Shown here: positions 9,172-30,451 of the stretch, in pieces | Layout of the letters: each line of letters opens with the position of its first letter | How positions within the stretch are numbered: the first letter of the stretch is position 1 | Origin: PVC group bacterium | GTDB taxonomy: Bacteria > Omnitrophota > Gorgyraeia > B26-G9 | NCBI GenBank assembly: GCA_024231215.1 | Contig: JAAEQR010000072.1 | Location: 129,210-193,209, forward strand | Reading direction: 5' to 3' | Length of the DNA stretch: 64,000 nucleotides | Notes under the pieces: generated by a model | Databases searched by the model: none | Told to the model about the DNA's origin: nothing | Seen by the model: the letters and a program-made list of their open reading frames with translations, nothing else | Program-made: the position numbers and the translations under genes

Positions 9172-10032
9172 ATGAGTTATTACAAAATTCTAGGTTTTGA
9201 TAAGGAACCGTTTTCCACAAGTCCTGATCCGTCATTTTTTTATGAATCACGTGAGCATGAGAGGGCGTTAACTAATTTGATGATTGAATTACGGCTTAAG
9301 CGTGGTTTGTCTGTGATTTTAGGAGACGTTGGGACGGGAAAAACTACTTTGAGCCGTAAACTCTATCAGCTTATCCAATCACAGGATGCATTCATCTGTC
9401 ATATGATTCTTGATCCGGTATATAATGACGAAGAGATATTTTTGACTTCTCTGGTAAGGAATTTTGAGGTGGAGCCGAATAATTTCGGGCCGGCAATCTT
9501 AAATCTAAAAGAAGCATTGGAGAAATTTCTTTATCAGAAAGGCGTTGAGCAAAATCAGACCGTTGTTTTAATTATCGATGAAGCACAAAAGCTTAATGAA
9601 GTAAGCTTAGAATGCTTGCGTGTTTTATTGAATTATGAAACAAACGAGTTTAAACTCTTGCAATTGGTTTTGCTCGGTCAAATGGAATTACATTCCAAAA
9701 TAATAAACATTCCTAATTTTATAGACAGAATTAGTTTTAAATATACTCTAAATCCTTTGGATGTAGAAGAAGTAAGAAGGATGATTGAATTTCGAATACG
9801 ACAGGCTGGTTATCAGTCTAATATTCAACTGTTTTTAGACCGGGCGATTAAGGAGATCCATCGTAATACCGGGGGATATCCGCGTCGTATCAACATGTTA
9901 TGTCATAAACTTCTTAAACAGTTGGTGATGAAAAATCAGTTTGTAGTTGATGAAGCATTGGTTAAAGAAGTAGTAGAAGAAGAATTGCGGCAGGGACTGC
10001 ACTGGGTAAGACAGCCTTCGGTAGTGGCTTAA
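9172..10032 (+). CDS. ExeA/GspA/MshM-family AAA ATPase (secretin assembly)
   Basis: Walker A GDVGTGKTTL, Walker B LIIDEAQ, and collinear with the AAA portion of ExeA/MshM. 286 aa. Confidence 0.7.
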   Translation: MSYYKILGFDKEPFSTSPDPSFFYESREHERALTNLMIELRLKRGLSVILGDVGTGKTTLSRKLYQLIQSQDAFICHMILDPVYNDEEIFLTSLVRNFEVEPNNFGPAILNLKEALEKFLYQKGVEQNQTVVLIIDEAQKLNEVSLECLRVLLNYETNEFKLLQLVLLGQMELHSKIINIPNFIDRISFKYTLNPLDVEEVRRMIEFRIRQAGYQSNIQLFLDRAIKEIHRNTGGYPRRINMLCHKLLKQLVMKNQFVVDEALVKEVVEEELRQGLHWVRQPSVVA

Positions 10033-10046
10033 ATAGGAAATGCGTT

Positions 10047-10724
10047 ATGGCCGATAAAAATGTTTCTCCGGAAAAACGTTTATTAAAGATAATTGAAGGG
10101 CAGCAGGATGAAGGGGCTGTGGCCTCAACGTTGAGGACCGGCAAGAAATATATGGCTCCTAGCAGTCTGAAGGGACGCTGGGCTTTTTTTAAAGAAAAAT
10201 TTAAAAAAGGCAACAAGACGGCAAAGAGGAAGTCTGCGCCTTGGGATATAAAAAAGGTTAATCAGGTCTTAAGTTTTAGTGTGGCATTGCTGTTTATAGG
10301 GTTTATATCTAGTATGCTTGTGGACTATTTTAATCTGAACAGCGATGATTTTGCAGTACCACAGATGGACTCAACTGCTCAGGCTACACCGATAAAGGGG
10401 CTTTCTTTGTTACAGCCTGAGGATCATTATTTACAGAAAGTAAGCGGACGCGATTTGTTCAAGTTTGGAGATATTGTAGTTGAGACGCCGGCTTTTCGTG
10501 AGGAGGATAAACCTCAGGTTTCGCGATTGCAAAGTTTAATGAAAGGGTTGAAACTAGTCGGGGTTTCCTGGGGGAAAGTTCCAGATGCGATTGTCGAGAA
10601 TGAAAGTGCAAATAAAACTTATTTTGTTAAAGCTGGATCGATGATTGAAGAAGCCACAGTAAAAAATATTTTTAAAGATAAAGTTGTTTTAGAACTTGAA
10701 GGAGAAGAGGCAGAGATAAGGTGA
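10047..10724 (+). CDS. bitopic membrane protein, GspC/PilP/GspB-like secretin-interacting component
   Basis: One TM segment (VLSFSVALLFIGFISSMLV). C-terminal ...LKLVGVSWGKVPDAIVEN...YFVKAGSMIEE..VKNIFKDKVVLE fits the PilP/GspC HR-domain beta-sandwich pattern. Position between the ExeA-like gene and the secretin. Confidence 0.4.
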   Translation: MADKNVSPEKRLLKIIEGQQDEGAVASTLRTGKKYMAPSSLKGRWAFFKEKFKKGNKTAKRKSAPWDIKKVNQVLSFSVALLFIGFISSMLVDYFNLNSDDFAVPQMDSTAQATPIKGLSLLQPEDHYLQKVSGRDLFKFGDIVVETPAFREEDKPQVSRLQSLMKGLKLVGVSWGKVPDAIVENESANKTYFVKAGSMIEEATVKNIFKDKVVLELEGEEAEIR

Positions 10725-12505
10725 AGCAGATCATCGGGGGGTTGATTATTGTTAGCATCTTATGTGCAACGGTTAGTTTGTTTGCGGAAGAGTTAGCGCA
10801 AGCTATATTGCCGCCACAGGCTACGACGGCACAGGTTGCTTTTTTACAAGAAGGTATATACGGTAGAATTTCTTTAGATCTGCGCCAGATTGATATCCAT
10901 GATGCATTGAAATACTTTTCATTAAAAAGTGGGTTGAATATTGTTACGTCAAAATCTGTAAGCGGAAGGGTCACTTTGATAGTGGAAGATGTTCCGGTTA
11001 AAGATGTATTTGACATAATGTTGAGATCTACGGGCTTGGCGTATGACAAAGTTGGCAGTATCTACAATGTAATGACTCAAGAAGAATATAAGATTCTTTA
11101 TGGTAAACGCTTTGCCGATATTCGTAAGGTTAAGGTTTTTCGTTTACAATATGCGGTTCCGGAACAGGCTTTTAGTTTGCTGGATACGATCAAAAGTGAA
11201 GTTGGACGTATCTTGGTTGATCCTGAGTCTGGTACTGTATTGTGTATGGATTCTCCGGAAAAAATAGAACAGATGCAGTCGGCACTGGATCAGTTTGAAC
11301 GAAAGGGAGTAACCCGGGTTTTTGATTTAAATTATGCGTTAGCTTCAGACATAGAAGAACATCTTAAAAGCAGGCTTGATGATAAAAAAGTAGGTTCAAT
11401 AAAAGCTGATGTAAGAGCAAACCAGGTTGTAGTTCATGCTTTGCCTAAAAGGATAGAAGAAATAGCAGAGCTGATAGAAATTTTGGATAAAAAAACAAAA
11501 GAAGTTTTGATTGAGGCCAAAATTTTAAAAATAAAATTGGGAAATAATTCAGAAGCCGGCGTAGAATGGGAAGGTATATTTAATGCTTCGGAAAATAATG
11601 GGTTGACTTATGTGGGGTCGTATCCTTTTAGCGCGGTGCAGGCGACGACTGATGAATGGAGATCAAGAAGTCAAGTTTGGAAGGATACAGGATATGTGGG
11701 GTCATATCCTTTTAGCGGAACAAGTTCTAACTATTCCGGAGGACGCTCATCTATTGGATTTGACAAAATGCATGTTGGGGTTGTAGGTTCCCATGATTTT
11801 GATTTTTTATTGAAATATTTGACAATTGAGAATGAAGCTAAGATTCTGTCTAATCCGAAAATTGCTGTGGTTAATAAGCAAGAAGCCAGGATTCATGTCG
11901 GAGAAAAACAGGCATATGTTACCACAACCACCACTAGCGGACAATCAACAAGTACTATTTCAGAAAACGTTACATTTATAGATATCGGGATTCAGCTTAA
12001 TGTGACTCCGACGATAAATGAAGATGATTTTGTGCGGTTACAGCTTAAGACAGAAGTAAGTAGTGTGGTGGATGTCTTACTTACTCCTACGGAGAATAAA
12101 ATCCCGATTGTGGACACATCGCTGGCTGAGACTGTAGTTTTAATCAAAGGAGGCAAAACAATTATTATTGCGGGGCTGCGGAAAGATGAAAAGTCAAAGA
12201 TAGTACGCCGAGTGCCGATCTTTAGTAAGATTCCGCTTTTAGGAAAACTATTTCAAACAAAAATAGATATTGTAAATCGCACAGAATTACTGATTATGGT
12301 CACTCCGCAGATTATTACCGGGGATGCTTTAGAAATGATGGATAGTAAGCCGATTGGAGCTCCGGATGTAAAAGATATTAAGGAGTATGGAGAACTGGAA
12401 AAAAGAAGAAAAGAATTAGAAACATATCAGCCGGTTGTAGAGGAATTAGGGGGTATGAAATTTAAAAATTTTAAAGTGTATGAAAAGATGCGGAATAAGG
12501 ATTAA
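10721..12505 (+). CDS. secretin (T2SS/T4P GspD/PilQ/MshL family)
   Basis: N0/N1-like N-terminal domains. C-terminal secretin signature NPKIAVVNKQEARIHVGEKQAYV...VVLIKGGKTIIIAGLRKDE...VPIFSKIPLLGKLFQTK...ELLIMVTPQII. Signal peptide present. Confidence 0.85.
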   Translation: MKQIIGGLIIVSILCATVSLFAEELAQAILPPQATTAQVAFLQEGIYGRISLDLRQIDIHDALKYFSLKSGLNIVTSKSVSGRVTLIVEDVPVKDVFDIMLRSTGLAYDKVGSIYNVMTQEEYKILYGKRFADIRKVKVFRLQYAVPEQAFSLLDTIKSEVGRILVDPESGTVLCMDSPEKIEQMQSALDQFERKGVTRVFDLNYALASDIEEHLKSRLDDKKVGSIKADVRANQVVVHALPKRIEEIAELIEILDKKTKEVLIEAKILKIKLGNNSEAGVEWEGIFNASENNGLTYVGSYPFSAVQATTDEWRSRSQVWKDTGYVGSYPFSGTSSNYSGGRSSIGFDKMHVGVVGSHDFDFLLKYLTIENEAKILSNPKIAVVNKQEARIHVGEKQAYVTTTTTSGQSTSTISENVTFIDIGIQLNVTPTINEDDFVRLQLKTEVSSVVDVLLTPTENKIPIVDTSLAETVVLIKGGKTIIIAGLRKDEKSKIVRRVPIFSKIPLLGKLFQTKIDIVNRTELLIMVTPQIITGDALEMMDSKPIGAPDVKDIKEYGELEKRRKELETYQPVVEELGGMKFKNFKVYEKMRNKD

Positions 12506-12509
12506 AAAT

Positions 12510-14894
12510 ATGAAAAGGAAAAGTATGCTTTATCAGAAAAAAATATGGGGAATAAGAATAGCGTGTGTAATTGTCATGTTTATTCTGGGGGGAAGTATTG
12601 CTGTCCAATCTGCGCCGGATTCTTATGTTACAAGTATTGTGGAAAAAATTGAACAGGATATGAATGCTTTGTCTAAAGAGTTGGAATTAAATAAGCAGGC
12701 TTACGAAAAATTGAAATCTGAACATGCGCAGAAACAACAGACATTGGTCGTTCGGGATAGAGAGATTGAAGTTTTGCATAAGAAAATTACGCAATCAAAG
12801 AAAGAGTTTTCAGAGAAACAACAGGCATTGGTCGTTCGGGATAGAGAGATTGAAGTTTTGCATAAGAAAATTACGCAATCAAAGAAAGAGTTTTCAGAGA
12901 AACAATATAAATTGAACCGGAAAGATGATGAAATTGCGAAGATTAAACAAGAGGCGAGTAGTTTAAAAAAAGAGGCACTGCAAAAAAACAAGATGGTGGC
13001 AAGCAAAGATGAAGAAATTACGGATTTGCAGGAACAGCTTAAAGATTTTGATGTTCTTCTGAAAAGTGCGCATGAAACTATAAATAAGTTGAGACATGAT
13101 GATTCTAATAAAGATATAGCTATAGAATCAGTTCGCGAAGAATTGCAAAAAACAGAAGATTCATTTTTGGATAAGATTCAGTCAGAGAGGGATTCTTTTG
13201 ATGAAAGGCTGGCTAAAGCTAATGAAGTAGCTGAAAAACTCAGGAATCAAAATAAAAAACAAGCACTTGAATATATACAGCAAATTCAGGAGAAAGAGGG
13301 ACAGATAAAAGTTTCTCAGAAAACTATTAATCAGAAGAATGAGATAGTAACAGGACTGAATAGTGAGCTGGATAAAGAAAGGTTGGCAAATGAAAATTTG
13401 CGTAGTCAGTATAATATCTCAGGAGACGAGAAGAAACAACTGTTGGCAACAATACATGAGTTGGAAACAGAGATAAGCAAGCAGTCTTTAAAGCTAAAAG
13501 CAAATCAGCAAAACCTGAGCAATGCAAATAAAGACCAGAGCACACTGAAACAGGATTATGATAAACTTCAAGAGGAACATGAAAAGATTCGTAATGAAAA
13601 GGAATTGTATTTAAGTAAAGTCTATTATTATGAAAAACAGCTAGAAGAAAAAGATAAGAAACTACAGGCATTACGTGACGATATACAGAGACAGGTGTCT
13701 TTATTGCATCATCAGCTGGGTGGGGTAGTTCAGGTTTCCCAGGAGACTGATTCTCAGGGGCAGCAGCTTAAGGATAAAAAAGCTGAGCTTGAACAGGTTA
13801 AATTGCAAACAAGACAGGCTGAACGTGATTTTCAGGAACAATTAGGAAAGATGAGCAAGGAAAATAAAAAATTGCTGGAACAGAGTAATAAGCTAGTTGA
13901 AGAAAAATTACAGATTCTAGCACATATGTTGCAGCTGGAAGAAGAGCAGACAATAGAAAGTGAGGCAGGGATTGCTCCGGATATAGAGCATGAGCTAGTG
14001 TATATAAAGAATGAGTTAATAAATCTAAGTGCGTCTTTAGATCAGAAAGGGCTTGAATTAACTAAACTACAAGAGGAAAATTATAAATTATTTAAAGAAA
14101 AAAATGAGCTGCGTAATATTCTTCATGAATATAATGAACAGCTGTTGGCCAAAGATAAAAAGTTTAAGCATGCACAGCAGATAATGAAACAGAAAGAAAA
14201 GTCTCAGGGTTCAAGATCTAAGGAAATTAAAAGAGATCTTGATGTCCAGATGCGGAAATTCAGAAAGGTCAATGCTGATTTTGAGAAAAAAAATGTTTTA
14301 TATGAAAAAGATATGAAGAAATATTTATCTCAGCTGAATGATTTAAGGGATAAATTAGCTATTTCTAGAGATCAATATGAGAGTGCGAAAAAGGATCGTG
14401 ATTCTTATGCTAAGCGTTTGAAGGATATTTACGCGGATGAGAGAGATTGGCAGAAAAAAGATGCACAACAATTAACGCTGTTAAGCAGTTATTCCAAAAA
14501 CATAGATGAATTGAATGCAAAGATACATACTCTTAATACGGATAATAAACGACTTAGTTTACTGCTTAAGACTATGCCGGAAAAATTGCAGACATTGGAA
14601 AATGACGTTGGTAATCTACGTAAGCAGAATGCCACATTGCATTATAATTTAGGTGTATTTCATACCCAGCGACAGGAATATACACAGTCTATAGCTGAGT
14701 TTAGTCAGGCTTTGAAGTTTAACTCTAGTGATGCTAGCACACATTATAATCTGGGTGTTATATATTCTCAATATTTAATTGATGAATCAAAGGCAGTAGT
14801 ACATTTTAAACATTACCTTGTTTTGGCTCCAAATGATAAGGATATACAAAGGGCAAAAGAGTATATTCTGCTTTGGGGGAATAGAGGTAGGTAA
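12510..14894 (+). CDS. long coiled-coil protein with signal-anchor N-terminus and C-terminal TPR repeats (MshN-like?)
   Basis: N-terminal hydrophobic segment, about 650 aa of heptad-rich K/E/Q sequence, then a C-terminal YNLGVFHT...YNLGVIY TPR pair. ATG at 12510 is preferred over the 12480 start, which overlaps the secretin. Confidence 0.6.
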   Translation: MKRKSMLYQKKIWGIRIACVIVMFILGGSIAVQSAPDSYVTSIVEKIEQDMNALSKELELNKQAYEKLKSEHAQKQQTLVVRDREIEVLHKKITQSKKEFSEKQQALVVRDREIEVLHKKITQSKKEFSEKQYKLNRKDDEIAKIKQEASSLKKEALQKNKMVASKDEEITDLQEQLKDFDVLLKSAHETINKLRHDDSNKDIAIESVREELQKTEDSFLDKIQSERDSFDERLAKANEVAEKLRNQNKKQALEYIQQIQEKEGQIKVSQKTINQKNEIVTGLNSELDKERLANENLRSQYNISGDEKKQLLATIHELETEISKQSLKLKANQQNLSNANKDQSTLKQDYDKLQEEHEKIRNEKELYLSKVYYYEKQLEEKDKKLQALRDDIQRQVSLLHHQLGGVVQVSQETDSQGQQLKDKKAELEQVKLQTRQAERDFQEQLGKMSKENKKLLEQSNKLVEEKLQILAHMLQLEEEQTIESEAGIAPDIEHELVYIKNELINLSASLDQKGLELTKLQEENYKLFKEKNELRNILHEYNEQLLAKDKKFKHAQQIMKQKEKSQGSRSKEIKRDLDVQMRKFRKVNADFEKKNVLYEKDMKKYLSQLNDLRDKLAISRDQYESAKKDRDSYAKRLKDIYADERDWQKKDAQQLTLLSSYSKNIDELNAKIHTLNTDNKRLSLLLKTMPEKLQTLENDVGNLRKQNATLHYNLGVFHTQRQEYTQSIAEFSQALKFNSSDASTHYNLGVIYSQYLIDESKAVVHFKHYLVLAPNDKDIQRAKEYILLWGNRGR
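12731..12898 (+). repeat. perfect in-frame 84-bp tandem duplication (2 units) inside the coiled-coil gene
   Basis: GAAACAACAG(A/G)CATTGGTCGTTCGGGATAGAGAGATTGAAGTTTTGCATAAGAAAATTACGCAATCAAAGAAAGAGTTTTCAGA occurs twice back to back, encoding ...LVVRDREIEVLHKKITQSKKEFSEKQQ twice. Confidence 0.85.
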
Positions 14895-14903
14895 AAAATC
14901 GAA

Positions 14904-16730
14904 ATGCAAAAGTCAAAAATGAAAAAAATAGAGATAGCTATTACCTTAATGATTCTTTTTGCGAGTGGTAGTTTTGTATGCGCCGAAGATGTTCAGCAAT
15001 ATGCGGCTTTGTCTTCTTCTGCTCCTACTCAAGGGGTAATATCTAATTTAGCTATTTCCAGAGAATGTATGTCGTTAGATTTAAGGGATATTGATGTGAA
15101 AGACGCTTTGAAATATTTAGCTTCAAGGGCAAATATGAATATTGTCCCGACTAATGATGTTTCCGGTCGGATTACGTTGATGATCAAAAATGCGCCTTTG
15201 TCAGATATTTTTGATATTGTTATCCGTTCTAATGGATTGGCATACGAGAAAATAGGTAGCATTTACAATGTTATGACAGATCAGGAATATGTAGATCGGT
15301 ATGGAAAAAAATTTGATGATATTCGTCAGCTTAAAGTGTTTCATTTAACATATGTGGTTCCTGAGCAGGCATTTGCGATTATTGATTCTATAAAGAGTAA
15401 TATTGGTACAGTATTGTTAAACTCAGAGTCTGGAACGATTGTAGTGTTGGATACTCCTGATATTATAGCGGAAATTGATATTGCTTTGCAATCGTTAGAA
15501 CGTAAAAACAGTATTCAGATATTTGATTTGAAATATGCAAACGCAAAAGATATCGCGAAACAGCTGAAAACACAACTGGATAAAAAGAAAGCGGGAAAGA
15601 TCAGAGCTGATCTTCGGACTAATCAGGTTGTTGTTGAGACATTGCCTGAAAGGATGAAGGATATCGCGCGTCTTATTAAGGGGCTGGATAAAAAAACCAA
15701 AGCGGTATTAATTGACGCGCGAATTATTCAGGTGAAGTTAAGTGATGATTTAAGTAGTGGGGTAGAGTGGGAAGGTTTGTTTGATGTTACTACTGCAGGT
15801 GGGGCGACTACTTATTTTGGCAGTACTCCAGTTGCTTCTATGCAAAGTCAGGTTGGCACTTGGCGTTCTCGGCAAACAGTACTTAGTGATACCGGGTATA
15901 TAGGTTCATATCCTTTTAGCGGGACGAGTACTGATTACGATTCTGGTACAAAAAAAGTACTTAGTGAAGAAATGCATGTCGGAGTTGTTGGTGAAAATGA
16001 CTTTGATGTTCTTATTACATATCTTAAGACCTTGGGTAAAGTGAAAATATTATCTAATCCTAAGTTATCGGTGACTAATAATCAGGAAGCACGAATACAT
16101 GTGGGAGAACGACAGGCATATATAACCTCTATTACTACTGCGGGGCAAACCACAACTACAGTGTCAGAAGAGGTGACTTTTCTTGATGTAGGTTTGCAGC
16201 TATTTCTCACGCCGTGCATAAACGATGAAGGATATGTAACTTTAAATATAAAACCGGAGATAAGCAGTGTGGTGGGATATTTGACTACTGCTCAGGAGAA
16301 TAAAATTCCGATAATTGATACTTCTACGGCTGAAACAACAGTTCTGGTAAAAGATGGGTCGACTGTGGCTGTGGGAGGATTGCGTCGGGATGAAAAAACA
16401 ATAAATTCAAAAGAAGTTCCTTTGTTAGGTAGAATTCCTTTTTTAGGAACTCTTTTTAAGTCAGAAGAAAATAAAAATAAACGCAGTGAATTATTAATTA
16501 TGGTTACAGCTCATATTGTAGAAGGTGATGAATTAACTACAGGAAGATCCAGCGAGTTTAAACATAAATTAGATAAGGAATATCAGGATTATCAATCGAT
16601 TAATAGGGAGTCCGGATTGACTGAATATGAAAAAGAAAAAAATATAACTATTCAACAAAAAATGTATCAAAAATATCCGGGGTATGATGAGGAAGAAGAA
16701 CTTCAGCCAACCATAAAACCATTAAGGTAG
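14904..16730 (+). CDS. secretin, paralog of the 10721 gene
   Basis: Same architecture and collinear similarity: DIDVKDALKYLASRANMNIV..., NPKLSVTNNQEARIHVGERQAYI..., TTVLVKDGSTVAVGGLRRDE..., VPLLGRIPFLGTLFKSE..., ELLIMVTAHIV. Confidence 0.85.
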   Translation: MQKSKMKKIEIAITLMILFASGSFVCAEDVQQYAALSSSAPTQGVISNLAISRECMSLDLRDIDVKDALKYLASRANMNIVPTNDVSGRITLMIKNAPLSDIFDIVIRSNGLAYEKIGSIYNVMTDQEYVDRYGKKFDDIRQLKVFHLTYVVPEQAFAIIDSIKSNIGTVLLNSESGTIVVLDTPDIIAEIDIALQSLERKNSIQIFDLKYANAKDIAKQLKTQLDKKKAGKIRADLRTNQVVVETLPERMKDIARLIKGLDKKTKAVLIDARIIQVKLSDDLSSGVEWEGLFDVTTAGGATTYFGSTPVASMQSQVGTWRSRQTVLSDTGYIGSYPFSGTSTDYDSGTKKVLSEEMHVGVVGENDFDVLITYLKTLGKVKILSNPKLSVTNNQEARIHVGERQAYITSITTAGQTTTTVSEEVTFLDVGLQLFLTPCINDEGYVTLNIKPEISSVVGYLTTAQENKIPIIDTSTAETTVLVKDGSTVAVGGLRRDEKTINSKEVPLLGRIPFLGTLFKSEENKNKRSELLIMVTAHIVEGDELTTGRSSEFKHKLDKEYQDYQSINRESGLTEYEKEKNITIQQKMYQKYPGYDEEEELQPTIKPLR

Positions 16731-17719: not shown

Positions 17720-17763
17720 TAGTAGGCTCTGCAAGGGCTGGAGTATTGAAGAGAGGAGAAAGT

Positions 17764-18348
17764 ATGAAGAAGGTTATTGGTGTTGTGCTTGTGATAATGA
17801 CTATTTTTGTTTTTTCTTTACAAGAAGGATATGCATTTTTTGGCAATAAAAAGAAGGCTGCTGATACTACTGAAGAAGAAACTATCCAGGAAGTAAGTAA
17901 AGCTCCGGAAAAAGAAGTCGAGAAACAGCCGGAGGTTAAAGTTGAAGAAAAAGCCCCAGCGATTGACAAGAAAATAGTTCAGATGAAAGCTATGAAGAAA
18001 AAGAAACGGGCACAGTTAAATAATACAATGTGGGATATTGAAGTTATCGATTTATCCTCTAAAACTAAGCAGAAAGCTGACGTGCTTGTTTTTGGAAAAG
18101 ATGGTTTTTATTCAGAAAATAAATCTGCAATTGATTTTGCTGCAACAAATTACACTTTAAATTTGCAAGACGATGGAAGTGTTACATGGGAAACAATGCA
18201 AAGCGGCAAAGACGGAGCAGTATTATTCTGGAAAGGTGAACTTGATAAGAAAATGACCAGCATGCGTGGTATTTTTAGTCATCAAGTTGCGGGGAAAACA
18301 GAAAATTATTCTTTTAACAGCACGGGGAAGAGACCTTTGAGAAAATAA
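17764..18348 (+). CDS. secreted hypothetical protein
   Basis: RBS GAGAGGAG, then an ATG. N-terminal signal peptide MKKVIGVVLVIMTIFVFSLQEGYA. No recognisable domain. Confidence 0.4.
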   Translation: MKKVIGVVLVIMTIFVFSLQEGYAFFGNKKKAADTTEEETIQEVSKAPEKEVEKQPEVKVEEKAPAIDKKIVQMKAMKKKKRAQLNNTMWDIEVIDLSSKTKQKADVLVFGKDGFYSENKSAIDFAATNYTLNLQDDGSVTWETMQSGKDGAVLFWKGELDKKMTSMRGIFSHQVAGKTENYSFNSTGKRPLRK

Positions 18349-22547: not shown

Positions 22548-23846
22548 ATGGAAGATATGAAACTTATAACCAACAATATGCGTAATTTTGTATCTAAAAA
22601 AGAGATGGATGATGTTTTTCGTCCGATGAAGCTTATTCACGGAGCGTTAAAGAAAAAAGAATGTCCGGGTAATGACTTTGTTGGTTGGTTGGACTTACCA
22701 TCTACAATACCGTTAGCTTTGGTCAAAGACATTGAACAGACAGCAGCTAAAATACGTAAGCAGGCAGATGTATTCATAAGTTTGGGTATTGGTGGTTCAT
22801 ATCTGGGGGCAAAAGCGACAATAGAGTTTTTGAAACCAGCGTTTGCTAATGAATTAAAAAGTGAAAAACCAAAGGTTTACTTTGCCGGACATAACTTAAG
22901 CGCGGATTATCTGACGGATTTATTTGCTGTGTGTAAAAATAAAAAAGTTGTAATTAACGTAATATCTAAATCAGGTACAACTACAGAAACCGCTGTAGTT
23001 TTTAGAATTATTAAACAGTATTTAGAAAAGATATATGGTAAGAAAAAAATAAAAGATAAGATTGTTTGCACTACGGATGAATCCAGAGGGGCATTGCGTA
23101 AGATGGCGGATGAAGAAGGGTATAAAACTTTTATTATCCCGGATGATGTTGGGGGAAGATTTTCCGTACTTACTCCGGTTGGCCTCTTACCGATTGCGGT
23201 AGCTGGGATTGATATTCGTGCTCTTATAAAAGGTGCGGCTGATTTTGAGAAGAAATGTAACAATGTAACTTTAAATTCTAACCCAGCTTACAAATACGCG
23301 GCGATTCGGCATCTATTGTATAAAAAAGGTAAAGTTATTGAAATATTGTCTTCGTTTCATCCTTCATTACAATATGTTAGTGAATGGTGGAAACAGCTAT
23401 ATGGAGAGAGTGAAGGAAAAAATAAAAAAGGGGTATTTCCTGCATCGTGTAACTTTACTACAGATTTACATTCTTTGGGTCAGATTATCCAGGACGGAAG
23501 ACGAAATATGTTTGAGACATTTTTGGTAGTTGATAAGTCTGCTTCCCGGCAAAGCGTTCCGAAAGTCAAAGATAATCTTGACGGATTAAACTATTTGGCC
23601 GGTAAAGACATGGAATTTATAAATCGTAAAGCATATGAAGCTACATCTAGCGCACATTATGAGGGTGGAGTTCCTAATATGACCATTTTCATTCCGAAAC
23701 GAAATCCCTATTATCTTGGACAACTGTTTTATTTTTTTGAGAAGGCAGTAGCTATGTCTGGATTGCTTTTAGGGGTTAATCCGTTCAACCAACCGGGAGT
23801 AGAAGCTTATAAAAAGAAAATGTTTAAGCTCTTGGGTAAACCTTGA
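22548..23846 (+). CDS. pgi: glucose-6-phosphate isomerase
   Basis: SLGIGGSYLGAKA and FxGESEGKN-type motifs of the PGI family. 432 aa. Confidence 0.8.
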   Translation: MEDMKLITNNMRNFVSKKEMDDVFRPMKLIHGALKKKECPGNDFVGWLDLPSTIPLALVKDIEQTAAKIRKQADVFISLGIGGSYLGAKATIEFLKPAFANELKSEKPKVYFAGHNLSADYLTDLFAVCKNKKVVINVISKSGTTTETAVVFRIIKQYLEKIYGKKKIKDKIVCTTDESRGALRKMADEEGYKTFIIPDDVGGRFSVLTPVGLLPIAVAGIDIRALIKGAADFEKKCNNVTLNSNPAYKYAAIRHLLYKKGKVIEILSSFHPSLQYVSEWWKQLYGESEGKNKKGVFPASCNFTTDLHSLGQIIQDGRRNMFETFLVVDKSASRQSVPKVKDNLDGLNYLAGKDMEFINRKAYEATSSAHYEGGVPNMTIFIPKRNPYYLGQLFYFFEKAVAMSGLLLGVNPFNQPGVEAYKKKMFKLLGKP

Positions 23847-23893
23847 GAGATTCCATGAACGAAGTGAAGTGCAACCCCGGTGTCTGTTAAAGT

Positions 23894-24058
23894 ATGGATT
23901 GTAAAGAATGCAAGAAATTAATAGCCAAATTTTTGGATGAACAATTAGATCCAAAACAGCAGGAATTGATGGAAAAACATCTAAGCAGTTGTCCTAACTG
24001 TGTGCGTGGACTTGAGTCTCTGGACAAAATGGTTGCTTTAATGCGCAACTTATCTTAA
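23894..24058 (+). CDS. 54-aa zf-HC2 (anti-sigma-factor-type zinc finger) mini-protein, not in the ORF track
   Basis: MDCKECKKLIAKFLDEQLDPKQQELMEKHLSSCPNCVRGLESLDKMVALMRNLS fits the C-x-E-x4-L-x2-[FY]-[LV]-D-x-x-L ... HL-x2-C-x2-C pattern of RsrA/ChrR-type anti-sigma N-domains. Confidence 0.45.
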   Translation: MDCKECKKLIAKFLDEQLDPKQQELMEKHLSSCPNCVRGLESLDKMVALMRNLS

Positions 24059-24086
24059 AGAGTAAACCCTTCTTTATAAATATTCC

Positions 24087-24116
24087 TTGACATTCCACAC
24101 GTTTGTGTGGTATTAT
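24087..24116 (+). promoter_or_regulatory. lexA promoter (TTGACA ... TATTAT) carrying the candidate operator
   Basis: TTGACA at 24087-24092 and TATTAT at 24111-24116. The spacer contains the palindrome CCACAC-GTTT-GTGTGG. Confidence 0.5.
24095..24110. promoter_or_regulatory. candidate LexA operator (inverted repeat CCACAC N4 GTGTGG)
   Basis: Perfect 6-bp inverted-repeat arms sit exactly between the -35 and -10 hexamers of lexA's own promoter, the usual position of an autoregulatory SOS box. Confidence 0.45.
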
Positions 24117-24170
24117 GTTATTCGACGTAGTATTTCTATATACATTTGTTATTTTGAGAGGGGGAAAGAT

Positions 24171-24755
24171 ATGCTTACCGCGAAGCAGAAAAATGTGTTG
24201 ATATTTTTAAGGCAAAGGATTCGTAGCGGCTTACCACCAACAATCAGAGAAATTGCTCAGGAATTCAAAGTATCTTCGACCGGAACAGTCAGAGACTATC
24301 TTAAGGCTTTATGTACCAAGGGATATATTATTTTATCTGAGAAGAAGTCGCGTGCTATTGAATTAACTGAAAAGGCAATGTTAAATATTCCGATAATTGG
24401 CCAAGTTCCTGCAGGTGTTCCGGTATTAGCTGTGGAAAATGTGGAAGATTATTTTAATGTAGATAAGTTATTTGCTCAACAGGATGAGTTGTTTTTTCTA
24501 CGGGTAAAAGGGGATAGTATGATCGGAGTGGGAATTATGCCGGATGACTTGGTTCTGGTTAAAAAACAGCCGATTGCCCGGGACGGAGATATGGTGGTTT
24601 GTCGGATAGACGGAGAAGTTACTGTAAAAACCCTGAGAAATAAAGATAAATGTTTTTATTTACAGCCGGAGAATAAGAATTATTCGATCATACCTTTAAC
24701 TGAAAACTCACAGATAGTTGGCAAGGTTATTACTGCGGTTAGAAAATATGTTTAG
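24171..24755 (+). CDS. lexA: LexA repressor
   Basis: N-terminal winged HTH (TIREIAQEFKVSSTGTVRDYLKALCTKGYI). C-terminal S24 peptidase with Ser (GDSM) and Lys (VTVKTL) catalytic dyad. RBS GAGGGGGAAAG lies before the ATG at 24171. The 24087 start from the ORF track is rejected. Confidence 0.85.
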   Translation: MLTAKQKNVLIFLRQRIRSGLPPTIREIAQEFKVSSTGTVRDYLKALCTKGYIILSEKKSRAIELTEKAMLNIPIIGQVPAGVPVLAVENVEDYFNVDKLFAQQDELFFLRVKGDSMIGVGIMPDDLVLVKKQPIARDGDMVVCRIDGEVTVKTLRNKDKCFYLQPENKNYSIIPLTENSQIVGKVITAVRKYV

Positions 24756-26112
24756 GTTAATAGCATTAAACATTTTATTGATTGTTTTTGTTTTCAATGT
24801 TTGTAGTTATGCGCAACTGCCAGAGGATGCGGATGATTATGATCAGTTGATTGCTCAAGTTCAGGAAGCTCTCAAGATAAATCCTTATGATCCCAATTTG
24901 AAAGAGCAGTTAGCTGTTTTATATCATAATCAAGGGGTTAAATTATCAGAAAATGGACAATGGGCGGATGCGATTTTGATTTTGGAGCAGGCGTATGACT
25001 TGCGCCCACAAGAAGCCGTGATAAAAACAACCTTAGCTAGTTTATATAACGCTTATGGCTTGGAACTAAGAGATCAGAGAAGATTAACAGAAGCCTTAAG
25101 TAAATTGAAATCTGCGTTGGAGTATGCTCCGGAAGAATTGCAGATAAAAAAGAACCTTGCGGTTGTCTACCTTGATCTTGCGCACAAGGCTTTTGAAGAC
25201 CATGAATATGATAACTGTAGCAGATTTTTACACCAGGCGGTTTTTCTTGACGCAAATAATCCTTATGTACATATGCTTTTTGGCGAACTTGCCTATAAAA
25301 AAGATGATTATTTTCAGGCGGAAACAGCATGGAATAAAGCGTTGGACTTAGAACCTACATTATATGAATTACGTGTGCGTCTTGAGAAACTAAAAGCAGA
25401 AAAGCAACAAGAGCAAAATTTTAGTTATCGGGAAATTGATAATTTTAAACTAAAGTTTGAGGGACTTGATAAACAGGAATTAGCAGATTCTGCCGCACAG
25501 ATTCTTAGGGATGCTTACCGGGAGGTAGGACAGGATTTTAATTTATACCCTAATTCAGTTATTCCGGTAATTATTTATCCGATGACAACTTTAAAGAAAC
25601 TGGACTATTTTCCCGACTGGGCTGCAGGTGTGTATGATGGGAAAATAAGGATAGGCGATGGATTTAGCAAAAATAAAGCTTATATGAAGGCAGTACTTTA
25701 TCACGAGTATACCCATGTTTTGGTTCGTATTTTAGGCCATGATAATGTTCCTCTTTGGCTCAATGAGGGAATAGCTGAATATGAAGCTAAAAGAGTGAAA
25801 AAAGTTTGGCAGCGTAAAGCTAGGAAGCAAATGTTACTTAAGGCAGTAAGAAAAAATGTGCTTTTTTCATTTGATGATCTGGCAAATATGACTTTGGTCA
25901 GGATGAATCAGCTTTCTGCAGCTAGAATAGAATTGATATATGCACAGTCTGAATCTTTTGTCACCTATCTTATTGAGAGATATTCTGTATATGATATTAG
26001 AAATGTTTTGGTTGGGCTGGGAAAAGGTGCGAATATCTATAAATCGATAAAAAAATCTTTGTATGTCGATCTGGATGTACTAATAAAAGACTGGCAGAAC
26101 GAATTCAAATGA
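24748..26112 (+). CDS. TPR-repeat protein with C-terminal peptidase-MA-like (HExxH ... E) domain
   Basis: Signal or TM N-terminus, several TPR units, then YHEYTHVL (HExxH) and NEGIAEYEA (third Glu ligand). Confidence 0.5.
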   Translation: MFRLIALNILLIVFVFNVCSYAQLPEDADDYDQLIAQVQEALKINPYDPNLKEQLAVLYHNQGVKLSENGQWADAILILEQAYDLRPQEAVIKTTLASLYNAYGLELRDQRRLTEALSKLKSALEYAPEELQIKKNLAVVYLDLAHKAFEDHEYDNCSRFLHQAVFLDANNPYVHMLFGELAYKKDDYFQAETAWNKALDLEPTLYELRVRLEKLKAEKQQEQNFSYREIDNFKLKFEGLDKQELADSAAQILRDAYREVGQDFNLYPNSVIPVIIYPMTTLKKLDYFPDWAAGVYDGKIRIGDGFSKNKAYMKAVLYHEYTHVLVRILGHDNVPLWLNEGIAEYEAKRVKKVWQRKARKQMLLKAVRKNVLFSFDDLANMTLVRMNQLSAARIELIYAQSESFVTYLIERYSVYDIRNVLVGLGKGANIYKSIKKSLYVDLDVLIKDWQNEFK

Positions 26113-27248
26113 TCCCGCTAGGTATATATCTTCATATCCCTTTTTGTATCAAGAAATGTCTTTACTGTGATTTTAACTCTGTAGAGTTGAAGCAACGCAA
26201 GGAGATAGATCAATATATTGCTGCGTTGAAAGAGGAAATTTATTTTTGCAGTAAAGATGTTTTCTCCCGAACAGTAAAGAGTATATATTTTGGAGGAGGA
26301 ACGCCGTCTTTATTAACAGAGGAAGATGTAAATTGTCTTGTTGCTGCAATAAAAGAAAAATTTTCACTTTTACCGGAAGCAGAGATAACTTTAGAAGCTA
26401 ATCCAGCTACAATTTGCTATGAACAGCTTCTTGGATATAAAAATGCCGGGATAAACAGGATTAGTCTAGGGGTTCAGTCTTTCCAGGATAAATATTTAAA
26501 GATATTAGGACGAATTCATACCGGCAAAGATGCCCTGGAATCGATAGAGTTACTACGTCGGGCGGGTTTTTCCAATATTAGTATTGATCTTATGTATGGG
26601 TTACCTGGACAGGATTTAAAGGGCTGGACAGATGATTTGGCTCGATTTATATCTTTGGGGCTTGAACATATCTCTTTTTATGACCTAAAGATAGAAAAAA
26701 ACACACCGTTTTATCCTATGAGGGATGAATTATTTTTACCTAAGGATGAGCTTCAGATTGATATGTATAAAAGGGGGATTGAAAAACTAAAAAAAGCCGG
26801 GTATCGGCATTATGAAATATCTAGCTTTGCTAAAGAGGGGAAAGAGTCAAAGCATAATCTTGTTTATTGGGAAAACAAGGAATATTTGGGGATTGGGGCA
26901 GGGGCTTACTCCTATTTGAAAGGAACAAGATTCAGGAGGCATAAATCTATAAATACATACCTAGAAGAGGCAGCGAAAACTGATTTTAAGGGTTATGATC
27001 AGGAAAATTTAGATATAGGGAGGAGCATCAGGGAAACTATAGCTTTAAATCTCAGGATTTTAGATGGAGTCTCCTTGACTAAGATTGCGAAAGAAAGAGG
27101 AATAACAATAGATAATGGTCTTTTAGATAGATTTAACCATTTGCAAGCTCAAGGGTTAATTGATATAGAGGGGGAGCAATACCGGCTTACCCAGAGGGGT
27201 ATATTATTTTATGATACAGTGGCAGGGGAGATATTAGTGTTAGATTAA
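26109..27248 (+). CDS. hemW: radical SAM heme chaperone HemW / oxygen-independent coproporphyrinogen-III oxidase-like
   Basis: LYLHIPFCIKKCLYCDFNS radical-SAM CxxxCxxC N-terminus and HemN-like C-domain. 379 aa. Confidence 0.7.
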   Translation: MIPLGIYLHIPFCIKKCLYCDFNSVELKQRKEIDQYIAALKEEIYFCSKDVFSRTVKSIYFGGGTPSLLTEEDVNCLVAAIKEKFSLLPEAEITLEANPATICYEQLLGYKNAGINRISLGVQSFQDKYLKILGRIHTGKDALESIELLRRAGFSNISIDLMYGLPGQDLKGWTDDLARFISLGLEHISFYDLKIEKNTPFYPMRDELFLPKDELQIDMYKRGIEKLKKAGYRHYEISSFAKEGKESKHNLVYWENKEYLGIGAGAYSYLKGTRFRRHKSINTYLEEAAKTDFKGYDQENLDIGRSIRETIALNLRILDGVSLTKIAKERGITIDNGLLDRFNHLQAQGLIDIEGEQYRLTQRGILFYDTVAGEILVLD

Positions 27249-27853: not shown

Positions 27854-29494
27854 TTGACAGATTTTTATAAGAAATTACAATATGCCAGCCTAATTTTGAT
27901 CATCTTTTCATGTATTTCCCCCGTAAGTGCCCAAGAAGAGACATTTCTAAAAACCAAAATTGAAAAAATTGGTAATTCTAAGCGAAGTGAAATTAATCAG
28001 ATAAATCAGGTATTACGTAATCTGGATATTCCCAAAGAAATAGGTATGGTTAAAGAAACTTATATGCCTCGCAGTCCGAAGGCTAATCTTATTATTACAA
28101 TTCAGGATTTACATTGCCATTATCAAGCCCAAAAAAACATTGCTGCTATACTAAATTATCTTACTAATAATTTTGCGTTAAAACTTATCAGTATTGAAGG
28201 GGGCGCAGGTCCGATCGATACGGTGTTTTACCGTGAGTTGCCGGATGAAAGAATCAAAGAACAGGTAGCAGAATATTTTTTAAAAGAAGCTCGTATTAAC
28301 GGTACAGAGTATTTTGCGATAACGACAAATAAAGAAATTGCGCTTTATGGAGCTGAAGATTCTAAATATTATGATTGGAATTTAGAGGCGTTTTTAGATG
28401 CTTTGCCGAAACGGGAAAAAATACTTAAAGATGTTGCGGTTTTAGAAAATGCACTGAATATCTTGAAAGATCGTATATATAATAAGCGGTTAAAAGAATT
28501 AGATAATTATATAGTTGCTTATGAAAATAAAACGATATCATTTGAAGACTATATTTTAAATATAGAAAAACAGTATTCTAAGACTAAACTAATTAGAGAT
28601 TTTAAGCAGGTTGCTCAACTTGCCGAAAGTATTCATATAAAAAGAGAAGTTAATTTGGTAGCAGCAGAAAAACAACGAGGTGAATTAATTGATTATTTAT
28701 CAACAAAATTGCCCAGGAGAGAATTAGAAGAATTTTTACGAATCACTTTAGAGTTTAAGACCAAGACGGTAAAGGCATCGGAGTATCATAGTAAACTGAA
28801 AGAACTTTATGAGAAGACTATTGAAAAAACAAAGACTTTTGAACAGAATTGGCCGGATCTTAGTGAATATATCGTTTATTTGGATAAATATGAGACGTTG
28901 GATGATATTGAGCTTTTTAATGAAATAGATAAAGCTTTGGATGGAATAAAAAATAGTCTATATACAAGTTATACTCAAAAAAAGTTAGACCGAAATTTAA
29001 CAATAATACGCTTAGCGAGAAACCTTTTCTCCACAAAATTACTGCCACGGGATTTGCCGATAATCGATAAATATCGTAATGAGTTCAATGCGAAAAAAAT
29101 GGCTAAATTTATTAAACGTCAATCAAGAAGATTAACCCTTGATTTGCCGGTTCCAGCAGAATTAGAAGATATAGAAGATACTTTGCCGATGGTGGAAGAT
29201 TTTTATTATTATGCTTCACAGCGTAATGAAATTTTAGTAGACAATACTCTGGCATATATGAAGAAAGAAAACCAAGATGTGGGAATATTAATAACCGGTG
29301 GTTTTCATACCGATGGGATAACCGAGGATTTACGCGATAAACGTATTCCGTATGTTGTAGTAATTCCTCAAATAGATGCTCTTGAAGAGAATGATACTCG
29401 TTATATTGATGCCCTGAAGGGAAAAAAGACCCGTTTTGAAACAATGTTGGAAGGGGCAACTGATTCTGTACGAGATTTCTATTTTGGGAAGTAA
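27854..29494 (+). CDS. exported TraB/GumN/TIKI-family protein (putative)
   Basis: TTG start preceded by GGGGGAG. Signal peptide present. C-terminal VGILITGGFHTDGITEDLRDKRIPYVVV resembles the TraB/GumN GxxHLxG...V motif. Confidence 0.35.
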   Translation: MTDFYKKLQYASLILIIFSCISPVSAQEETFLKTKIEKIGNSKRSEINQINQVLRNLDIPKEIGMVKETYMPRSPKANLIITIQDLHCHYQAQKNIAAILNYLTNNFALKLISIEGGAGPIDTVFYRELPDERIKEQVAEYFLKEARINGTEYFAITTNKEIALYGAEDSKYYDWNLEAFLDALPKREKILKDVAVLENALNILKDRIYNKRLKELDNYIVAYENKTISFEDYILNIEKQYSKTKLIRDFKQVAQLAESIHIKREVNLVAAEKQRGELIDYLSTKLPRRELEEFLRITLEFKTKTVKASEYHSKLKELYEKTIEKTKTFEQNWPDLSEYIVYLDKYETLDDIELFNEIDKALDGIKNSLYTSYTQKKLDRNLTIIRLARNLFSTKLLPRDLPIIDKYRNEFNAKKMAKFIKRQSRRLTLDLPVPAELEDIEDTLPMVEDFYYYASQRNEILVDNTLAYMKKENQDVGILITGGFHTDGITEDLRDKRIPYVVVIPQIDALEENDTRYIDALKGKKTRFETMLEGATDSVRDFYFGK

Positions 29495-29704: not shown

Positions 29705-30451
29705 ATGAAATTAGTCCAAAATAGAAAATTTAGCTGGGTTCTCAGATTTAGCGTAATGCTGCTTATCCAGGCAGTGTTGACGGTAAATACTGTCTGGGCA
29801 AGTTTGGACAGTAATACCTTGGCACCTAGACTTGCGGTTAATATAGAAAGTTTTAAAGAGAAAATAGCAGTTTCTAGAATAACTTTAGATAAGTATTTAC
29901 AAAAAGAAGAGAAGCGAAGGGTACGGGCAGAAAAGCGTCAGAGAGAAAAGCTGGAGAGGAAAAAAGAAGCTGCCGAACTTAAAGGTGAGTATGAAAAATA
30001 TAAAAAATATACTATTGGTGATCTTAGAAAAAAACTTAAGCTGGGTAAGGAAATATTAGTATCGAATTTTCAGATAGTTCCGGGCATAGGTAATATTCGA
30101 GCAGCTGTTATTGGCAATGAAGTATTACTTAGAAGTCAGAATGCAACATTATGGCTTACATTTCGGTATGATGGGACAGAGATTTTTATCGGAGGTAAAA
30201 AGTTTTACAGAATTGAGAATGAAAATGTTTTGGTAGATGATGACAATTATGAAAATAGAATAAAACTGGAACAAGTTGGAAATCGACTTATTCTTGATTT
30301 AGATAAAATAACTGGGAATAAAGATATAGATAGATTTTTTGGACGAAAGAAACAAAAAGCAACAACTGAATTATCAGAAGGATTAATTAAAGATAGGATC
30401 CCGGATACACCTGAGGAGTTGTTAGGTTTATTGCTGGAACAGGCGATATAG
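29705..30451 (+). CDS. exported hypothetical protein
   Basis: Signal peptide ...VMLLIQAVLTVNTVWAS shares the MLIQ..T.NTVWA core with the next gene. No known domain. Confidence 0.4.
   Translation: MKLVQNRKFSWVLRFSVMLLIQAVLTVNTVWASLDSNTLAPRLAVNIESFKEKIAVSRITLDKYLQKEEKRRVRAEKRQREKLERKKEAAELKGEYEKYKKYTIGDLRKKLKLGKEILVSNFQIVPGIGNIRAAVIGNEVLLRSQNATLWLTFRYDGTEIFIGGKKFYRIENENVLVDDDNYENRIKLEQVGNRLILDLDKITGNKDIDRFFGRKKQKATTELSEGLIKDRIPDTPEELLGLLLEQAI

Follow-up and report, generated by a model that had tools for sequence, protein, structure and literature searches.

Palindromic LexA-binding sites with a four-base spacer are known from several bacterial lineages: the "Cheo box" of the Gram-positive bacteria (Firmicutes and Actinobacteria) reads CGAAC-N4-GTTCG, the box of Fibrobacter succinogenes TGCNC-N4-GTGCA, and that of the Verrucomicrobia TGTTC-N4-GAACA. 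PMC8565304 describes the autoregulation of E. coli lexA through CTGT-N8-ACAG SOS boxes, presents LexA autoregulation via a palindrome in its own promoter as the rule, and counts 17 LexA motifs reported by 2021. This study concerns the lexA promoter and a neighbouring small open reading frame (ORF) in a stretch of 64,000 nucleotides, hereafter the window, from a Planctomycetes-Verrucomicrobia-Chlamydiae (PVC) group bacterium of the phylum Omnitrophota (assembly GCA_024231215.1, contig JAAEQR010000072.1, positions 129,210 to 193,209 of the forward strand). The promoter contains a palindrome, CCACAC-GTTT-GTGTGG, which is very probably the LexA/SOS operator of the Omnitrophota, and upstream of it lies a 54-codon mini-ORF with an anti-sigma-type zinc-finger pattern. 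To the joint proposition of a LexA operator for the palindrome and, for the mini-ORF, an origin by truncation of an RsiW-like anti-sigma gene we assign a probability of about 0.82.

The promoter scan places the -35 hexamer of lexA, TTGACA, at 24087..24092 and its -10 hexamer, TATTAT, at 24111..24116, both on the + strand, with an 18-nt spacer between them and an 11/12 match overall. Inside this spacer lies the candidate LexA operator, or SOS box, CCACACGTTTGTGTGG (24095..24110, strandless), a perfect 6-4-6 palindrome that starts 2 nt past the -35 hexamer and runs to the start of the -10 hexamer, its right arm also holding a TG extension of the -10 element at 24108-24109. The lexA gene itself (24171..24755, + strand, 194 aa) starts 61 nt downstream of the palindrome, is preceded by the Shine-Dalgarno sequence GAGAGGGGGAAAG, and is separated from the mini-ORF (23894..24058, + strand) by a 112-nt intergenic region. 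As 42 of 100 shuffles of the window contain at least one palindrome at up to two mismatches, a single such palindrome is unremarkable by chance, and the significance of this one rests on its conservation in other genomes.

The protein that this promoter serves is annotated as LexA in NCBI, matches the Pfam families LexA_DNA_bind (PF01726, E 3.7e-16) and Peptidase_S24 (PF00717, E 2.1e-32), and finds its best PDB matches in the LexA entries 3K2Z, 7B5G and 1JHH (E ~1e-32). E. coli LexA is cleaved between A84 and G85 and carries the catalytic dyad S119/K156. Upon alignment of the window protein to PDB LexA structures (3K2Z, 1JHH/3JSO), the cleavage site Ala81-Gly82 and the residues Ser116 and Lys153 are kept, A81-G82, S116 and K153 falling on the E. 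coli positions just named. To judge by these residues, the window lexA encodes a canonical self-cleaving repressor. Its recognition helix, S36-TGTVRDYL-44, differs from the SPNAAEEHL found at the aligned positions of E. coli LexA, and the helix-3 signature STG(T/S)(V/A/T)RD(Y/H)L occurs in every motif-linked LexA whose N-terminal domain was read.

Conservation of the palindrome was assessed at 16 lexA loci gathered in three rounds by LexA homology alone, the motif not being used in their selection; LexA identity across these loci ranges from 54 to 100%, and the named ones belong to Omnitrophota. All 16 promoters carry the palindrome between -35 and -10, with 188 of 192 arm (core) positions identical. 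The first round, in which LexA peptide patterns were searched in one genome per species, yielded ten loci from Omnitrophota metagenome-assembled genomes (MAGs) whose LexA proteins are 76-87% identical; one of them ends at a contig edge, and each of the nine loci with enough upstream DNA has CCACAC-N4-GTGTGG with at most one mismatch, a TTGAC(A/G) -35 element directly before it and a -10 element starting with TA directly after it. The same promoter arrangement was found at three loci recovered by a protein-identity search (L186, L187 and L188; LexA 83-88%). Three more distant Omnitrophota loci (L191, L192 and L193; LexA 54-57% identical) hold the palindrome at the same promoter position, with one spacer mismatch each in L192 and L193 and a degenerate site, CCGCACGCATGGGTGG, in L191. 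The loci differ in flanking sequence, in the gene upstream and in how far the palindrome lies from the lexA ATG (52-507 nt). Chance as the source of the palindrome was ruled out by this 16/16 conservation.

Such a palindrome might also act in RNA, as a hairpin that terminates or stabilises the transcript of pgi (the glucose-6-phosphate isomerase gene upstream) and of the mini-ORF. A terminator scan does flag CCACACGTTTGTGTGG together with the following TATTATGTTA, and the hairpin is present in the minimum-free-energy fold; the stem, however, has only 6 pairs, the T tract is poor and interrupted, the fold z-score of -1.65 is not significant, and the element has no match in Rfam. Moreover, across loci the upstream genes change while -35, -10 and the downstream lexA stay constant, and no compensatory changes or covariation between the arms occur among the 16 loci. 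Arms conserved in sequence without covariation indicate a protein-binding site rather than an RNA hairpin. The RNA-element reading was rejected on the missing Rfam match, the insignificant fold and the absence of covariation, and we regard it as barely credible.

The aligned sites also define the operator more closely. Nearly every site begins its spacer with A and ends it with T, so that the consensus is CCACACA-NN-TGTGTGG. In most orthologous promoters TTGAC lies 1-2 nt 5' of the palindrome, and TA follows it directly in 31 of 32 sites. Sites that lack an abutting -35 hexamer have TA flanks on both sides, which suggests that the full operator is possibly a 20-bp sequence, TACCACACA-NN-TGTGTGGTA.

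Related SOS loci totalling about 340 kb showed additional imperfect sites only beside lexA. Locus L090 has sites at 153-168, before a DUF6625 gene, and at 1254-1269, and its second, imperfect operator, GCACACATTTGTGTGG, stands just 5' of the lexA ribosome-binding site. A second imperfect operator lies beside the first in L008 (9479-9509), and both L008 and L188 (about 1130-1165) show an extra ...GTGTGG 9-15 nt past the first site. Several relatives were further observed to leave 145-507 nt between the operator-promoter and the lexA start (L003 3213-3356; L006 9683-10000; L008 9495-10000; L009 9799-10000; L186 about 9800-10000), and in L003, L007 and L008 the ribosome-binding site is closely preceded by short TAAC-type repeats, e.g., GTAACTCATAACTCATAACT.

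When the region upstream of lexA (23847-24171) was compared at up to one mismatch with eleven classes of LexA motif, taken in part from PMC8565304 (CTGT-N8-ACAG, CGAAC-N4-GTTCG, GTTC-N7-GTTC, TGTTC-N4-GAACA, RGTAC-N3-DGTWCB, TGCNC-N4-GTGCA, TTAC-N3-GTAA, GGTT-N10-AACC, TTAG-N6-TACTA, TTTG-N5-CAAA and CCT-N10-AGG), none matched apart from one chance-level, 8-base TTAC-N3-GTAA-like sequence at 24055. Full-text searches returned no paper on LexA or the SOS response of Omnitrophica/Omnitrophota, within a literature coverage that is incomplete and that excludes the work on Verrucomicrobia LexA, and a full-text search of LexA with CCACAC gave noise only. The palindrome thus looks like a previously undescribed LexA operator sequence, a further derivative of the N4-spaced series of LexA boxes. 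It shares with the Gram-positive box a palindromic dyad, an A/T-rich spacer of 4 nt, the inner AC-N4-GT, a location in or near the promoters of lexA, recA and dinB-type genes, and a canonical LexA composed of a winged helix-turn-helix and an S24 peptidase domain. The half-site, on the other hand, is CCACAC instead of CGAAC, a difference at two to three specificity positions. The Fibrobacter and Verrucomicrobia boxes are likewise N4-spaced palindromes of non-proteobacterial lineages; the former has the inner CAC-N4-GTG in common with the Omnitrophota motif, and the latter comes from the same PVC neighbourhood in which NCBI places this MAG. Both differ from it in the outer bases, neither pattern is found upstream of the window lexA, and the Omnitrophota consensus is longer, being 7-2-7 and possibly 9-2-9 with the TA flanks. 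The likeness to E. coli lies in the Ala-Gly cleavage site with its Ser/Lys dyad and in a LexA dimer that represses its own promoter, translesion polymerase genes and recA, as it presumably does here, whereas motif and spacing are unrelated and a single operator fills the -35/-10 spacer.

Matches in metagenomes extend the association to other genes of the SOS response. JGI metagenome contigs were scanned for the exact CCACACA-NN-TGTGTGG (14 specified bases), and at least 120 matches were listed. Among these matches, 22 of 120 have an SOS-type gene downstream: lexA at 16 loci (start within about 1.2 kb, in most cases at 22-90 nt), a Y-family DNA polymerase gene at 5 (13-26 nt), and, directly downstream at 1 locus, a gene for a small protein of about 100 aa that resembles DUF6504. 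By our estimate, based on a random position falling within about 1 kb upstream of lexA about once per thousand, some 0.1 rather than 16 of the 120 listed matches would be expected upstream of lexA by chance. Pfam confirmed the nature of the downstream genes (IMS, E 2.6e-29 and 2.1e-19; Bro-N, E 9e-6). The arrangements found behind the motif comprise lone Y-family polymerase genes (L093, L117, L131, L134 and L180), operons in the order lexA, DUF6504-like gene, dinB (L066, L092, L130, L154, L160 and L085), lexA followed by recA (L106, 7306-9346, 67% GC), and a Bro-N/dinD-like gene followed by lexA (L164; also L193). Close relatives of the window also have lexA, then the DUF6504-like gene, then dinB, and in them the operator would control a translesion polymerase.

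Could another transcription factor, e.g., one that controls the lexA and dinB operons together, be the protein that binds this site? We think it very unlikely. In a few matches the same promoter layout does precede genes unconnected with DNA damage, namely an NYN-like gene (L079), the DUF6625 gene of L090 and phage genes (L031). In L079 and L090, however, the odd gene precedes lexA in a single operon (NYN-like-lexA and DUF6625-lexA, respectively). The most constant partner of the motif is lexA, at 16 of 16 independent loci and at least 16 metagenome matches; LexA is the sole DNA-binding protein encoded in these operons, and its recognition helix is kept across motif carriers.

Viral contigs served as an internal control, 0 of 54 motif matches on them being near lexA, and these 54 matches are mostly to be regarded as chance occurrences or as sites of other repressors in unrelated phages. 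Two viral sites nevertheless have the layout of a promoter. In L031 (10024-10039, minus strand, 37% GC), TTGACGTT-CCACACATTTGTGTGG-TATACT stands upstream of a small ORF and terminase genes, and in L027 (435-450) TTGACTA, the palindrome and TATAAT follow one another as they do in lexA promoters; these contigs may represent phages with genes under host LexA control. The exact motif with TA flanks was also observed before lexA-recA, before lexA and before genes for Y-family polymerases of 444-469 aa on contigs of 57-69% GC (L106 as above; L178, at 568; L117, at 8750; L131, at 1327; L093; L134; L128). A search with the RecA encoded in L106 brought up no named close relative. The range of the motif may extend beyond the low-GC Omnitrophota family.

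Several points weigh against the identification of the palindrome as the LexA operator. That LexA is the binding protein is read from position and gene association, and damage induction is likewise inferred. The window holds no second site at up to 2 or 3 mismatches in its 64 kb, which leaves a regulon within this genome unproven, and the one site it does hold departs from the consensus at the first spacer base (G for A). Since the metagenome sites were picked by their exact core, what they contribute independently is limited to their flanks and gene context. The 16/16 lexA promoters and the recurrence before dinB-type, recA and dinD-like genes nonetheless support what the earlier note had proposed from the letters of the window, namely that CCACAC-N4-GTGTGG could be the SOS operator of this lineage; its view that the site is unlike the familiar LexA boxes also holds, save for the chance-level match mentioned above.

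With the palindrome taken as the LexA operator, regulation would proceed as follows. A LexA dimer bound to CCACACGTTTGTGTGG would fill the spacer between -35 and -10 and exclude RNA polymerase, resulting in negative autoregulation. Upon DNA damage, RecA filaments on single-stranded DNA would stimulate the self-cleavage of LexA at Ala81-Gly82 by Ser116/Lys153, and the promoter would fire. The same operator would control lexA, the DUF6504-like gene of about 100 aa and dinB in relatives of the window, and its targets elsewhere would be recA, a dinD-like gene and separate Y-family polymerase genes. In the window it would control lexA and possibly also the gene that overlaps its end, which encodes a protein with tetratricopeptide repeats (TPR) and a peptidase-MA domain (24747..26112, + strand; Pfam Peptidase_MA_2 and TPR; its ATG overlaps the end of lexA).

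The circuit of the window appears to be a reduced one. Neither dinB nor the DUF6504-like gene gave a tblastn match in the window, and the recA gene of this MAG lies outside it. In L001 the orthologue of the TPR/peptidase-MA gene (13733-15109) sits after lexA, the DUF6504-like gene and dinB, whereas in the window it follows lexA directly. From this comparison of window positions 24747-26112 with L001 positions 10581-13733, the window has lost both genes, and the circuit here would consist of lexA, perhaps with the overlapping downstream genes. L187 also lacks the DUF6504-like gene and dinB, and L009 retains dinB fragments only; with the window included, these cases indicate that loss of the SOS polymerase recurs in this group.

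The small protein between lexA and dinB, of about 90-104 aa, is encoded in most Omnitrophota lexA operons (L001 10581-10847; L186 10578-10862; L188 1785-2066; L066 8317-8625; L128 10148-10432) and is absent from the window. Its match to Pfam DUF6504 is weak (E 5e-4 to 2e-3), and the literature search found no paper that mentions DUF6504. In L128 the gene has its own copy of the operator-promoter. The protein is a candidate accessory protein of the SOS response or of Pol IV. Mutagenesis cassettes linked to lexA are known in the form lexA-imuA-imuB-dnaE2. The operons of the relatives resemble them in co-transcribing lexA, a small accessory protein gene and a Y-family polymerase gene, but the polymerase is DinB-like (domains IMS, IMS_HHH and IMS_C, with DxD kept), no dnaE2 was seen, and the small protein is DUF6504-like rather than ImuA. 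A wider proposition can be put forward tentatively, with the odds somewhat against it: CCACACA-NN-TGTGTGG would define the SOS system of the Omnitrophota and of at least one high-GC lineage, its core would be lexA, the DUF6504-like gene and dinB, with the small protein as an obligatory accessory factor of SOS or Pol IV, and the window would be the minimal case, an autoregulated lexA in an operon with the TPR-peptidase gene.

The mini-ORF upstream of the operator encodes a product of 54 aa, MDCKECKKLIAKFLDEQLDPKQQELMEKHLSSCPNCVRGLESLDKMVALMRNLS, which matches Pfam zf-HC2 (PF13490) at E 7e-10 with 39.3 bits (cutoff 22.2). When the product is aligned with 14 relatives, no variation appears at C3, H29, C33 and C36, the residues of the pattern H-x3-C-x2-C with an upstream Cys; the zf-HC2 signature C...H-x3-C-x2-C is shared with RsiW (5WUQ) and with the zinc-containing anti-sigma (ZAS) factors RsrA (5FRF), RslA (3HUG) and ChrR (2Q1Z). 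The family profile matches the cytoplasmic domain of B. subtilis RsiW (5WUQ) over residues 1-71 with E 2.6e-11. In an AlphaFold2 model of the mini-ORF product (pLDDT 79.6) the chain forms three helices, at 3-15, 20-30 and 34-51, with good confidence for residues 1-40. The structure nearest to it in fold is RsiW (TM 0.74, rmsd 1.9 A), within a range of TM 0.69-0.75 for RsiW, RslA and ChrR, at Foldseek E-values that are weak for a protein of this length. The fourth helix (PPxDF...V..RL) is lacking, the profile and RsiW both running about 17 residues further. Whereas the full-length relatives share with RsiW its architecture and the adjacent gene for an extracytoplasmic function (ECF) sigma factor, the window protein, unlike RsiW and the ZAS factors, lacks helix 4, a transmembrane segment, an extracytoplasmic domain and a partner sigma. 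Searches of the 64-kb window by tblastn with four ECF sigmas from the orthologous position gave no match, and no sigma domain came up when 18 window ORFs of 150-260 aa were scanned with Pfam.

The relatives indicate how such a short protein arose. Searched by tblastn with the 54 aa, five of the related loci proved to hold a homologue (45-59% identity) in the interval from pgi to lexA, and four of these homologues (in L002, L005, L009 and L010), once read through to their stops, are proteins of 287-370 aa. Full-length homologues consist of a zf-HC2 head, the PPxDF...V..RL helix, a hydrophobic segment and a long C-terminal region, and the mini-ORF aligns with the first 53 aa of the anti-sigmas in L002, L005, L009, L010, L186 and L188. 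In the four loci just named, the anti-sigma gene is preceded by a translationally coupled gene of 201-211 aa that is an ECF sigma by its Sigma70_r2, r4_2 and ECF domains; L186 (LexA 83%) has an ECF sigma and an anti-sigma of 297 aa, and L188, the closest relative (LexA 88%), has an anti-sigma of 328 aa directly between pgi and lexA and no sigma gene. Other loci show further stages: L001/L190 has a stump of 60 aa, L008 a C-terminal fragment only, and L004, L006 and L187 no anti-sigma remnant at all. Among 1.84 billion representatives searched, six matches had E <= 1e-10, of which only the window and L001 forms are short, and the next matches, with 50-60% identity over residues 1-52, measure 187-436 aa. 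The tblastn alignments of full-length anti-sigmas continue through the stop of the mini-ORF to 24070; the TAA is followed in frame by -R-V-N-P-S-L-* (24056..24079, + strand), in which R-V-N-P looks like a trace, if a weak one, of the V(N/D)PP present after helix 3 in the full-length proteins.

On this comparative evidence the mini-ORF is best explained as what truncation has left of the N-terminus of an RsiW-like membrane anti-sigma factor, and not as a new standalone family. The ancestral block would have run pgi, ECF sigma, anti-sigma, variable cargo genes, lexA, and the window would have lost the sigma gene and all of the anti-sigma past helix 3. As for the description in the earlier note, its 54-codon ORF does have the anti-sigma zinc-finger pattern (the PF13490 match), and its statement that no ECF sigma lies nearby agrees with the negative tblastn and Pfam scans. 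The ORF was unannotated as far as the ORF track of that reader went, whereas NCBI holds an identical protein, "zf-HC2 domain-containing protein [PVC group bacterium]", on a 708,307-bp contig. Likewise, "standalone" is apt for this locus but not for the family, since in relatives the gene at this position encodes the whole anti-sigma and in most cases has an ECF sigma beside it.

The mini-ORF could instead be a functional, selected mini-ZAS, i.e., a soluble peptide sensitive to zinc or redox state that binds region 4 of an ECF sigma or another partner. Some observations speak for it and to that extent against simple truncation and decay. The frame is intact with the four zinc ligands C3/H29/C33/C36 kept, other short zf-HC2 proteins of 57-88 aa exist, and the three-helix model fits onto RsiW and RslA, both of them binders of sigma region 4. 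Between the window and L001, moreover, pN (nonsynonymous differences per site) is 0.23-0.25 against a saturated pS (the synonymous equivalent) of ~0.75, and a pN/pS of ~0.3 fits purifying selection if the truncation is old, but such a low ratio could also predate the truncation. The LexA identities among the window, L188 and L001 (88, 87 and 86%) are compatible with one truncation event as well as with two. Against a functional peptide stand the missing helix 4, the lack of an ECF sigma in 64 kb and the want of a convincing ribosome-binding site, no good Shine-Dalgarno sequence preceding the mini-ORF ATG in contrast to the GGGGGAAAG before lexA. The closest relative, L188, is full length, several states of decay coexist at the same locus, and short forms number two only among the six matches at E <= 1e-10. 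We therefore consider a selected mini-ZAS rather unlikely and the mini-ORF probably a relic without anti-sigma function, either inert or a leftover small zinc-binding peptide. A functional tie between the mini-ORF and lexA was rejected, as the homologues are either absent or separated from lexA by 0.1-6.9 kb and 0-4 unrelated genes. The mini-ORF and lexA came to be neighbours in the window through deletions in the hypervariable interval between pgi and lexA.

That interval is anchored on the left by pgi (22548..23846, + strand; Pfam PGI, E 2.3e-25), the left end of a syntenic block from pgi to lexA, and pgi orthologues with 69-79% identity lie upstream of lexA in L001, L002, L004-L006 and L008-L010. 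Between pgi (or the anti-sigma gene) and lexA, 0-4 genes for large unrelated enzymes were observed, including radical S-adenosylmethionine (SAM), HD, Kdo-transferase-like and GT2 proteins and a giant of 2372 aa (L002 5833-9858; L004 4865-9883; L008 1895-7857; L009 4778-9750; L010 4340-9867; L003 265-3158; L187 2772-9890). All of these cargo enzymes start with a signal-peptide-like N-terminus followed by "LSP..I", and almost all end in ...(E/N)Q(A/S)I. The end motifs may represent a lineage-specific sorting tag, or the cargo may be the regulon of the neighbouring ECF sigma. On the other side of lexA, the TPR/peptidase-MA gene is followed by a HemN/HemW-like radical-SAM gene (26109-27248). The window as a whole has 37% GC and carries nearly all its genes on the + strand; four of its + strand ORFs, of 200-546 aa (10047-10724, 17746-18348, 27854-29494 and 29705-30451), gave no Pfam match at E <= 1e-4.

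For those who search genomes for small ORFs, the mini-ORF is a caution, in that a clean domain match can be the stump of a larger protein, which synteny in relatives reveals. The operator concerns LexA, a textbook regulator whose binding motif has changed repeatedly, and adds to what is known of divergence among the N4-spaced LexA boxes, in which the inner AC-N4-GT persists here while the outer bases differ. It also points to the little-studied conserved small protein between lexA and dinB. The Omnitrophota are an uncultured phylum, often of ultra-small cells, and with a defined operator the SOS regulon of the whole phylum would become computable from MAGs.

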